Virus record (IMG/VR): IMGVR_UViG_2740892439_000015
Origin: a virus
Lineage: Duplodnaviria > Heunggongvirae > Uroviricota > Caudoviricetes
Strand: one strand, 5' to 3'
DNA length: 4,101 bases
Part shown: positions 1,343 to 2,879 of the stretch, one piece after another
How positions within the stretch are numbered: the stretch's first letter is position 1
Layout of the letters: every line of letters starts with the position of its first letter
Notes under the pieces: model-generated
Seen by the model: the letters and a program-made list of their open reading frames with translations, nothing else
Database searches by the model: none
Told to the model about the DNA's origin: nothing
Program-made: the position numbers and the translations under genes

Positions 1343-1400
1343 CCTCTCACTCCATTATTTAACGAATAAAAAAGCTGCGGTGCCTGGTGCCTCCAGGTGA

Positions 1401-1423
1401 CGTTAACCAGTTAACAATTAACG
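1401..1423. promoter_or_regulatory. candidate operator: three TTAAC repeats (cgTTAACcagTTAACaaTTAACg) with flanking CGTTAA/TTAACG inverted symmetry, about 60-80 nt upstream of the operon start
   Basis: Seen directly in sequence. Position is in the presumed promoter region of the small-membrane-protein/SPFH operon. No sigma-70 -35/-10 pair could be assigned confidently. Confidence 0.25.
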
Positions 1424-1492
1424 CCGGGATGTTTGACTTAACCACTAAGGAGGATTGTTTTAACTGTTCCGCGTGCGCTTAGCCGCATTCAC

Positions 1493-1604
1493 CGCAATGG
1501 TAAGAGCACTTGGCTGGCTGGGCGGCGATGACGCCTGTACGCATTTGGTGATCCGGTTCTGCTTCCGGCATTCGCTTAATTAGCCAAATACTCTTAACGT
1601 TGCG
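1493..1604. repeat. tRNA-3'-end-associated long-stem inverted-repeat element, copy E1 (degenerate)
   Basis: Arms 1493-1513 (CGCAATGGTAAGAGCACTTGG) and 1584-1604 (CCAAATACTCTTAACGTTGCG): 17 Watson-Crick pairs, 1 T.G and 3 mismatches over 21 positions, enclosing 70 nt. The 3' arm ends 1 nt from the CCA end of the Ser-like tRNA (1606). Plus-strand flank GCATTCAC and arm core GGTAAGAGCA are shared with E2/E3. Confidence 0.6.
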
Positions 1605-1605
1605 C

Positions 1606-1692
1606 TGGCGGAGAGTAATGGAATCGAACCATCATCGCTTGCGCAATGGGACGGTTTTCAAGACCGCTTGAGCACCATGCTCCCTACTCTCC
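1606..1692 (-). tRNA. type II (long variable arm) tRNA, anticodon UGA; tRNA-Ser(UGA)-like, atypical D-region
   Basis: Reverse complement is 87 nt: acceptor GGAGAGT/ACTCTCC (7 perfect pairs), anticodon arm GCGGT-CTTGAAA-ACCGT (U33, anticodon TGA, A37), 17-nt variable region containing a 5-bp stem with GCAA tetraloop (ATTGC-GCAA-GCGAT), T-arm GATGG-TTCGATT-CCATT, discriminator G, encoded CCA. The D-region (AGG GAGC-ATGGT-GCTC AA) has 3 nt before the D-stem and a short loop, so function is uncertain. Confidence 0.6.
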
Positions 1693-2855: not shown

Positions 2856-2879
2856 AAAAAAGCCCACCCGAAGATGGGC
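2856..2879 (-). terminator. rho-independent terminator (minus strand) with UUCG tetraloop
   Basis: Minus-strand RNA reads GCCCAUC-UUCG-GGUGGGC (7-bp stem, one G.U; stem 2862-2879) followed by UUUUUUAGGGUUUU. Coordinates cover the stem plus the first U-run (2856-2861); the U-rich tract continues to about 2848. On the plus strand the stem is preceded, not followed, by the A/T run, so it is unidirectional. Confidence 0.6.

Follow-up and report, generated by a model that had tools for sequence, protein, structure and literature searches.

The window analysed here is a stretch of 4,101 nucleotides of DNA from a virus of the Caudoviricetes (IMG/VR record IMGVR_UViG_2740892439_000015). At positions 1606–1692 it contains what a preliminary description, made from the sequence alone, called an atypical type II tRNA with anticodon UGA and a non-canonical D-region. 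The description offered three readings: a functional divergent serine tRNA, a tRNA-like regulatory RNA, or a decaying pseudogene. The question is what kind of tRNA this is, and what use it would be to the phage.

The tRNA-Ser(UGA) gene

ARAGORN calls a tRNA-Ser with anticodon tga at exactly 1606–1692, on the minus strand. The coordinates are those of the preliminary description, which gave no strand. The encoded RNA is GGAGAGUAGGGAGCAUGGUGCUCAAGCGGUCUUGAAAACCGUCCCAUUGCGCAAGCGAUGAUGGUUCGAUUCCAUUACUCUCCGCCA, 87 nt long with its encoded CCA; tRNA position i corresponds throughout to window coordinate 1693-i. Much of what had been described can be read directly in the sequence: a well-formed 7-bp acceptor stem (GGAGAGU/ACUCUCC), a G73 discriminator, the encoded CCA, the T-loop UUCGAUU, and a 5-bp variable stem (AUUGC/GCGAU) capped by GCAA. 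The anticodon loop, CUUGAAA, is as stated that of a tRNA-Ser(UGA), in agreement with the ARAGORN call, and is identical to that of E. coli K-12 serT.

The difficulty lies in the D-region. In a conventional 7/5 drawing (7-bp acceptor, 5-bp T stem), A8 G9 G10 precede a 4-bp D stem (GAGC/GCUC) with a 5-nt loop (AUGGU), which is the extra nucleotide and the short loop noted previously. These observations are correct. We propose that they are not defects of a 7/5 type II tRNA, and that they are accounted for by an 8/4 fold, with an 8-bp acceptor and a 4-bp T stem.

Covariance-model scoring had been suggested as a check. The best Rfam match of 1606–1692 is the tRNA-Sec model, at 44.6 bits (E=7e-7), which is below the gathering threshold of 47; in the Rfam clan competition this model beat the general tRNA model. 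The tRNA match is far above chance, because of this E-value and because the gene has been kept, with compensatory changes, across unrelated phage lineages. On a covariance model of its own family (see below) the region scores 93.1 bits.

tRNAs commonly fail to fold as a cloverleaf in single-sequence thermodynamics. RNAfold, run on the single sequence, did not recover the cloverleaf and gave a fold moderately better than those of shuffled sequences (z = -2.97). On both grounds it was dropped as a judge of the architecture.

Covariation in homologues and the 8/4 architecture

Homologues were collected by scanning IMG/VR. The search pattern kept four elements constant, namely the GG of the D loop, the AA preceding the anticodon stem, CUUGAAA and GGUUCGA. 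Positions 8–10, the start of the variable region and the ends of the T stem were left free. A family sample drawn by pattern is not an unbiased census, and the conservation of AA, GG and the loops within it is no evidence, because the pattern imposed them.

In what follows, '49' and '65' are the two bases that would form a fifth T-stem pair in a 7/5 drawing, '65' being the base after the fourth T-stem pair, and V0, V1 and V2 are the first, second and third bases after the anticodon stem. The scan gave 54 distinct matches with a compact D-arm. Position 8 is paired with '65' in 49 of the 54 (A-U 29, G-C 11, U-G 4, U-A 3, C-G 2), while '49' is paired with '65' in 37, mostly as G·U. Base 10 is paired with V0 in 46/54 (C-G 30, G-C 13, U-G 2, U-A 1), base 9 with V1 in 44/54, and V2 with '49' in 50/54 (C-G 38, U-A 6, G-C 4, U-G 2). 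When the junction partners of these 54 matches were taken in slid registers, pairing was far rarer.

A plain MAFFT alignment of the 54 members shifted several 5′ ends, and a covariance-model alignment was used instead. Searching with the model at E≤0.001 drew about 170 unrelated tRNAs; a strict cut-off was then applied. In the covariance-model alignment of 64 phage sequences, 93.3% of the cells are paired, against 66% when shuffled and 38–51% when slid, and double-sided changes are found in 27 of the 29 pairs. The D stem is 94.8% paired, with double-sided changes at all four pairs, and the anticodon stem 98.7% paired, again with covariation. The cells that decide the architecture are as follows.

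8:'65', A-U 33, G-C 12, U-G 4, U-A 3, C-G 2, with 8 unpaired
9:V1, G-C 38, C-G 15, U-A 3, with 2 unpaired
10:V0, C-G 35, G-C 13, U-G 3, U-A 1, with 7 unpaired
V2:'49', C-G 43, U-A 8, G-C 5, A-U 2, U-G 1, with 4 unpaired
'49':'65' (the rival fifth T-stem pair), G·U 31, G-C 9, A-U 2, C-G 1, with 20 of 63 unpaired and a single double-sided change

A further 28 sequences, from bacterial genomes and held out when the model was built, behave in the same way: 93.4% of cells are paired overall and 95% in the junction pairs. Here 8:'65' is G-C in 13, A-U in 4, G-U in 1, U-G in 1 and unpaired in 6, and V2:'49' is U-A in 12, C-G in 10 and G-C in 2, with none unpaired.

Because position 8, '49' and the linker 9–10 covary with their 8/4 partners in the homologues, the window tRNA is best drawn as having a predicted 8-bp acceptor closed by A8-U76, a 4-bp T stem, a junction helix of G9-G10 with C44-C43, and C45-G60 closing the variable arm. 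The features of this drawing, all on the minus strand, are:

1606–1692, minus: (8/4) tRNA-Ser(UGA) gene, from ARAGORN, the Rfam tRNA-Sec match, the family model and the annotations of near-identical records
1685–1692, minus: acceptor 5′ strand, tRNA 1–8 (GGAGAGUA), partner 1610–1617, with A8 in the eighth pair
1610–1617, minus: acceptor 3′ strand, tRNA 76–83 (UACUCUCC), with covariation at all 8 pairs
1683–1684, minus: linker G9 G10, 5′ half of the 2-bp junction helix (9–10 with 44–43)
1649–1650, minus: C43 C44, the first two bases past the anticodon stem, 3′ half of the junction helix
1670–1682, minus: compact D-arm, tRNA 11–23, stem GAGC/GCUC (11–14 with 20–23), loop AUGGU
1668–1669, minus: A24 A25, unpaired between D stem and anticodon stem
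1651–1667, minus: anticodon arm, tRNA 26–42, stem GCGGU/ACCGU (26–30 with 38–42), loop CUUGAAA, with UGA at 1658–1660 (tRNA 33–35)
1633–1648, minus: variable arm, tRNA 45–60, 6-bp stem CAUUGC/GCGAUG (45–50 with 55–60), GCAA tetraloop at 1639–1642
1618–1632, minus: T-arm, tRNA 61–75, 4-bp stem AUGG/CCAU (61–64 with 72–75), loop UUCGAUU
1606–1609, minus: discriminator G at 1609 (tRNA 84, equivalent to 73) and encoded CCA at 1606–1608, read from the sequence

The D loop contains G17 G18, equivalent to the canonical G18 G19, and a fifth D-stem pair, A15-U19, is possible. A25 and C43 are unable to pair, and the equivalent cell in the family is A:C or A:G; C43 pairs with G10 instead. The closing pair of the variable arm, C45-G60, uses the base that would be '49' in a 7/5 drawing. 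The 'extra nucleotide' vanishes in the 8/4 drawing, because nearly every base outside the loops is paired.

G60·U76 can also form in this one sequence, and for that reason the 8/4 assignment here rests on the homologues. An ordinary 7/5 class II tRNA-Ser would have A8, one inserted base before the D stem, a short D loop, and G60·U76 as its fifth T-stem pair. ARAGORN accepts the gene as a tRNA-Ser, and G·U is the commonest combination at '49':'65' in the family (31/63). We nevertheless consider the 7/5 drawing decidedly unlikely. The rival pair is unpaired in nearly a third of the family and has changed on both sides once, whereas 8:'65' occurs as five pair types and '49' covaries with the third base of the variable region. 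U8, the large D loop and other features of the canonical core are absent, and on the family model E. coli serT scores 46 bits against 93 for the window tRNA.

Relatives and annotation history

The window comes from a P1/D6/P7-like phage-plasmid of E. coli, of which it forms the tRNA region. About 28 E. coli plasmids match it at 96–97% identity over 98% of its length, and phage D6 matches it at 95.7%. The tRNA itself recurs at 100% identity in phage P7 and many E. coli plasmids. The identical copy in the P7 record (AF503408.1, 72257–72343) carries no annotation.

Other copies have fared little better. For the D6 copy, tRNAscan-SE gave no isotype. Among near-identical records PGAP labels one variant "tRNA-OTHER" and others "tRNA-Ser", and the "tRNA-OTHER" variant differs solely by A12 to G and A25 to G. 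The homologue in phage rV5, 90% identical, is a tRNA-Ser that was missed by tRNAscan and found only with ARAGORN (PMC3606486). The 8/4 fold, and not damage, accounts for these annotation difficulties, a recurring puzzle in well-known coliphages that runs from rV5 and D6 to the PGAP label and the unannotated gene of P7.

The compact D-region, A8 and the G·U at '49:65' are common to rV5-like myoviruses, SSU5-like plasmids of Klebsiella and E. coli, a T5-like Klebsiella phage, T4-like Klebsiella phages and Acinetobacter Saclayvirus. The best Rfam match of these relatives is likewise tRNA-Sec, at 38–44 bits. Compensatory changes include D-stem A12-U22 to G-C in Klebsiella plasmids, and acceptor A5-U/G6-C to G-C/A-U.

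Selection has not been uniformly strict, because some close copies carry changes that weaken helices. D6 has C12·U22 in the D stem; in the Klebsiella plasmid pX39-7 a G of the T stem is replaced by U, and the C opposite G9 by A; and one E. coli plasmid copy has U31·U39 and A73. This suggests a relaxation of selection in some plasmid lineages. Among the near-identical plasmids, differences between tRNA and flanks were too few for a test of purifying selection.

Such changes are what would be expected if the gene were a decaying pseudogene, or a hitch-hiking remnant in a mosaic tRNA region that is no longer used. The mosaic make-up of the region, the missing isotype in D6, the "tRNA-OTHER" label, and a possible decayed tRNA at 1940–2035 (see below) point the same way. 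However, every helix of the copy in the window is intact, the sequence is unchanged in P7 and many plasmids, and compensatory changes have preserved the architecture in unrelated phages as well as in bacterial tRNA arrays. We therefore regard decay, one of the three readings offered originally, as very doubtful. The first of them, a functional divergent serine tRNA, agrees with the intact helices, the double-sided changes throughout the family, the serine identity features and the host-identical anticodon loop. The gene most probably encodes a working (8/4) serine tRNA carried by the phage.

The same tRNA-Ser(UGA), with 8/4 branch and junction pairs, also occurs in cellular genomes, always within dense tRNA arrays (6–25 tRNA genes per 8-kb locus). 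The hosts of these arrays are cyanobacteria (Nostoc, Microcoleus, Calothrix, Phormidium), Nocardia, Neolewinella and a Pyrinomonadaceae MAG. Because the cellular copies always sit in arrays, the 8/4 fold seems to belong with mobile tRNA sets rather than with housekeeping tRNAs, which bears on why phages and tRNA arrays carry tRNAs of their own.

The tRNA cluster and its surroundings

According to ARAGORN, the minus strand of the window carries five tRNA genes, and the plus strand none. In addition to tRNA-Ser these are:

68–143, minus: CAU tRNA (ARAGORN)
2147–2222, minus: tRNA-Thr(UGU) (ARAGORN)
2227–2313, minus: tRNA-Tyr (ARAGORN)
2319–2395, minus: tRNA-Arg(UCU) (ARAGORN)

The cluster is on sequence grounds a mosaic, because the Ser and Tyr genes are far closer to their rV5 counterparts (90% and 92% identity) than are Arg, Thr and CAU (68–74%).

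The tRNA-Tyr gene (2227–2313, minus) also has an irregular D-region and a low general-tRNA score of 39.5 bits, and its rV5 homologue gives a weak tRNA-Sec match of 33.7 bits. By inspection its architecture is 7/5, not 8/4. In rV5 itself, an unannotated tRNA-like sequence lies between tRNA-Ser and tRNA-Thr (590–686 of the locus examined). It scores 35.5 bits, above the Rfam tRNA threshold; ARAGORN gives it a 4-base anticodon, and visual inspection shows a long variable region and perhaps a UUU anticodon.

Three long hairpins are found among the tRNA genes:

1493–1604, minus: long imperfect RNA hairpin (HP1), starting at the base after the tRNA-Ser CCA (fold prediction)
1824–1921, minus: middle hairpin, with homologous arms, -65 kcal/mol, z -7.6
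2059–2145, minus: hairpin with homologous arms, starting at the base after the tRNA-Thr CCA

A motif shared by the hairpin arms, CAAYRKTRAGARYRYTKG, has 5 matches in the window where 0.04 are expected. The three hairpins may be RNase III-type processing sites or copies of a small repeated element. A long hairpin lies 3′ of the tRNA in D6, rV5 and the SSU5-like plasmids, that is, in all contexts examined. The tRNA and its 3′ hairpin look like a unit, possibly a processing site, because the hairpin follows the tRNA in rV5 and the SSU5-like plasmids too.

The middle hairpin is confined to P1-like phages (28 records), and in P1 it lies under the annotated small ORF plp. Upstream it is adjoined by 1940–2035, which has weak similarity to the D-arm region of tRNA-Tyr (1964–1978 against 2292–2306, 87%) and may be a decayed tRNA copy. 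An Rfam match to the sRNA STnc100 at 1376–1496 (minus; 39.4 bits against a threshold of 47) overlaps the foot of HP1. This match, and those to mir-142, permuted tmRNA and Plastid-ycf2, were all below threshold and were rejected.

A scan for sigma-70 consensus sequences found no promoter upstream of the tRNA cluster. Its sole signal was a terminator-like hairpin at 2862–2879 (minus), located on the transcribed strand 5′ of the cluster and followed by a T-run. Adjoining it is a long inverted repeat, found by eye, at 2890–2975 (AAGAAAGAAGCCGACT...AGTCGGCTTCTTTCTT).

Codon usage and proposed function

Codon usage was compared between 65 CDS of the closest plasmid (NZ_CP027309, 1–50 kb) and 42 CDS of K-12, the host sample covering only 50 kb. 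Values for the codons matched by the tRNAs of the cluster, per thousand, are:

UCA, read by tRNA-Ser(UGA): plasmid 10.0 (18% of Ser codons), K-12 5.2 (10%)
AGA, neighbouring tRNA-Arg(UCU): plasmid 6.6, K-12 1.2 (5.5-fold)
ACA, neighbouring tRNA-Thr(UGU): plasmid 13.4, K-12 5.4 (2.5-fold)
AUA, neighbouring CAU tRNA: plasmid 12.5, K-12 2.4 (5.2-fold)

The enrichment of UCA is modest, about twofold. The Tyr codons of the 65 plasmid CDS are no different from those of the 42 K-12 CDS.

In serT this loop has cmo5U34 and a modified A37, and it decodes UCA, UCG and UCU. Because the anticodon loop is the same as that of serT, the window tRNA would be expected to decode UCA along with other UCN codons. 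The host SerRS would recognise it as a serine tRNA by the long variable arm, G73, G1-C, G2-C and A3-U. The short D-arm would keep only the GG that docks on the T-loop, while G9 G10 would pair with C44 C43, so that the variable arm starts at once, closed by C45-G60. Because the acceptor/T branch is still 12 bp long, it should suit EF-Tu and the ribosome like that of an ordinary tRNA, and it would fit EF-Tu and not SelB. In this way the tRNA would top up the supply for codons that are commoner in phage than in host genes. We conclude that it is most likely a working UCN decoder supplied by the phage for codon supply. Its transcription, processing, serylation and use in translation are inferred by analogy with published 8/4 allo-tRNAs in E. 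coli.

A different purpose can also be considered. Phage tRNAs have been proposed to evade tRNA-targeting defences (PMC10264068), and the gene might serve counter-defence over codon supply, replacing a host tRNA-Ser(UGA) that a tRNA-targeting nuclease, of the host or of a competitor, has destroyed or blocked, with the non-canonical body acting as a poor substrate. The concentration of the fold in phage clusters and tRNA arrays would fit, as would the gene for the Thoeris anti-defence protein Tad2 that lies about 1 kb beyond the cluster in related plasmids. Yet the anticodon loop, which is the usual nuclease target and the reported site of evasion mutations, is the same as the host's, this analysis identified no nuclease against the body of tRNA-Ser, and codon bias is a simpler reason. 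We thus consider counter-defence unlikely. Escape from a nuclease through mutation of the anticodon loop was rejected, the loop being equal to that of host serT.

In the closest plasmids, the gene annotated 'Thoeris anti-defense Tad2 family protein' lies about 450 nt past the CAU tRNA (534–1109 and 537–1112 in two loci), just beyond window position 1.

More speculatively, the fully paired core (8-bp acceptor, junction helix, and variable arm closed by '49') might represent a separate, 'portable' design of tRNA-Ser that is peculiar to mobile tRNA sets. It could have been selected for host-independent recognition by SerRS through a rigid variable arm, or for escape from host factors that act on the resident tRNA-Ser. 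We hold this to be improbable; if true, codon supply alone would be insufficient as an explanation.

The non-canonical fold has so far been known mostly from metagenomes and synthetic biology, and it is here placed in the tractable E. coli phages P7, D6 and rV5. In these phages its charging, its behaviour on the ribosome and its benefit to the phage are directly testable.

Comparison with known tRNA classes

The closest known system is that of Mukai et al. (Nucleic Acids Res 2017; PMC5389517). In that work, the Rfam tRNA-Sec model, together with ARAGORN, turned up false positives that were tRNAs with 8/4 or 9/3 acceptor/T branches; (8/4) tRNA-Ser occurs in phages; and 8/4 and 9/3 allo-tRNAs are serylated and used in E. 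coli translation. The window tRNA shares with the (8/4) tRNA-Ser described there an 8-bp acceptor and a 4-bp T stem (12 bp in all), the choice of this branch resting here on homology, together with a long variable arm, G73 and a serine anticodon. It also shares location in phage tRNA clusters, and detection by the tRNA-Sec model and ARAGORN rather than by standard tRNA models, and its compact D-arm may be Sec-like as well. The anticodon, UGA, is the trait that separates (8/4) tRNA-Ser from other allo-tRNAs, and the SerRS identity set of a long variable arm with G73 or U73 is represented by a 6-bp variable stem with GCAA loop and G73. On its predicted architecture, the gene is a member of this already described class.

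Two differences can be seen. The phage examples of that work are metagenomic (marine alpha-proteobacterial phages, and rumen), whereas those here are cultured enterobacterial phages and phage-plasmids (P7, D6, rV5-like and Klebsiella phages), annotated simply as tRNA-Ser. The allo-tRNA consensus combines a 6-bp anticodon stem with a long, tetraloop-capped D stem, whereas here the anticodon stem has 5 bp, not more, and the next base pairs with linker base 10 instead. The D-arm has a stem of 4 bp (5 with A15-U19) and a loop of 5 nt (or 3), shorter than the 6 bp and 4 nt of tRNA-Sec.

E. coli serT, the host counterpart, is like the window tRNA in the loop CUUGAAA, G1-C72, G2-C71, A3-U70, G73, CCA, the long variable arm and its length (88 against 87 nt). 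It differs in having U8, a 3-bp D stem, an 11-nt D loop, a 5-bp T stem and unpaired bases beside the variable arm, and its score on the 8/4 family model, given above, is half that of the window tRNA. The features that define a canonical 7/5 class II tRNA (7-bp acceptor, 5-bp T stem, U8 and a D loop of 8–11 nt) are not those of the window tRNA as drawn here.

With tRNA-Sec (RF01852) the window tRNA has in common the 8-bp acceptor, small D loop, long variable arm and G73, and serylation by SerRS, which here is predicted. tRNA-Sec is also its best Rfam match, and the D-arms of allo-tRNAs can bind SelA (PMC7590224). These points might indicate a relative of tRNA-Sec, converted by SelA and inserting selenocysteine at UCA, or, as the preliminary description had allowed, a tRNA-like regulatory RNA acting outside translation. 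Either is hardly credible. tRNA-Sec has a 13-bp branch (8/5), a 6-bp D stem, a 6-bp anticodon stem and anticodon UCA, whereas the window tRNA has a 12-bp branch (8/4), a D stem of 4–5 bp and the serine anticodon UGA, and its score (44.6 against 47) is below the tRNA-Sec threshold. The context suggests no regulatory target, and a regulatory role is unsupported.

Having named the gene as an (8/4) tRNA-Ser, we may add to the description of that class one modest structural detail, the covarying junction helix predicted from the alignments. The nearest parallel is the engineered 9/3 allo-tRNA UTu1. Cryo-EM on the ribosome shows that its D tetraloop keeps the G18:U55 and G19:C56 contacts, and that a pair between linker and variable arm is rigid, fixes the orientation of the arm and impairs translocation in E. 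coli (PMC9561287), which speaks against the function proposed here. Synthetic UTu1 has one such pair, which is non-Watson-Crick and harmful to translocation, whereas the natural 8/4 tRNAs here have two covarying Watson-Crick pairs. By analogy, the two junction pairs look like a natural and stronger form of the UTu1 linker contact, and they provide a structural hypothesis for how 8/4 tRNAs replace the canonical tertiary core.
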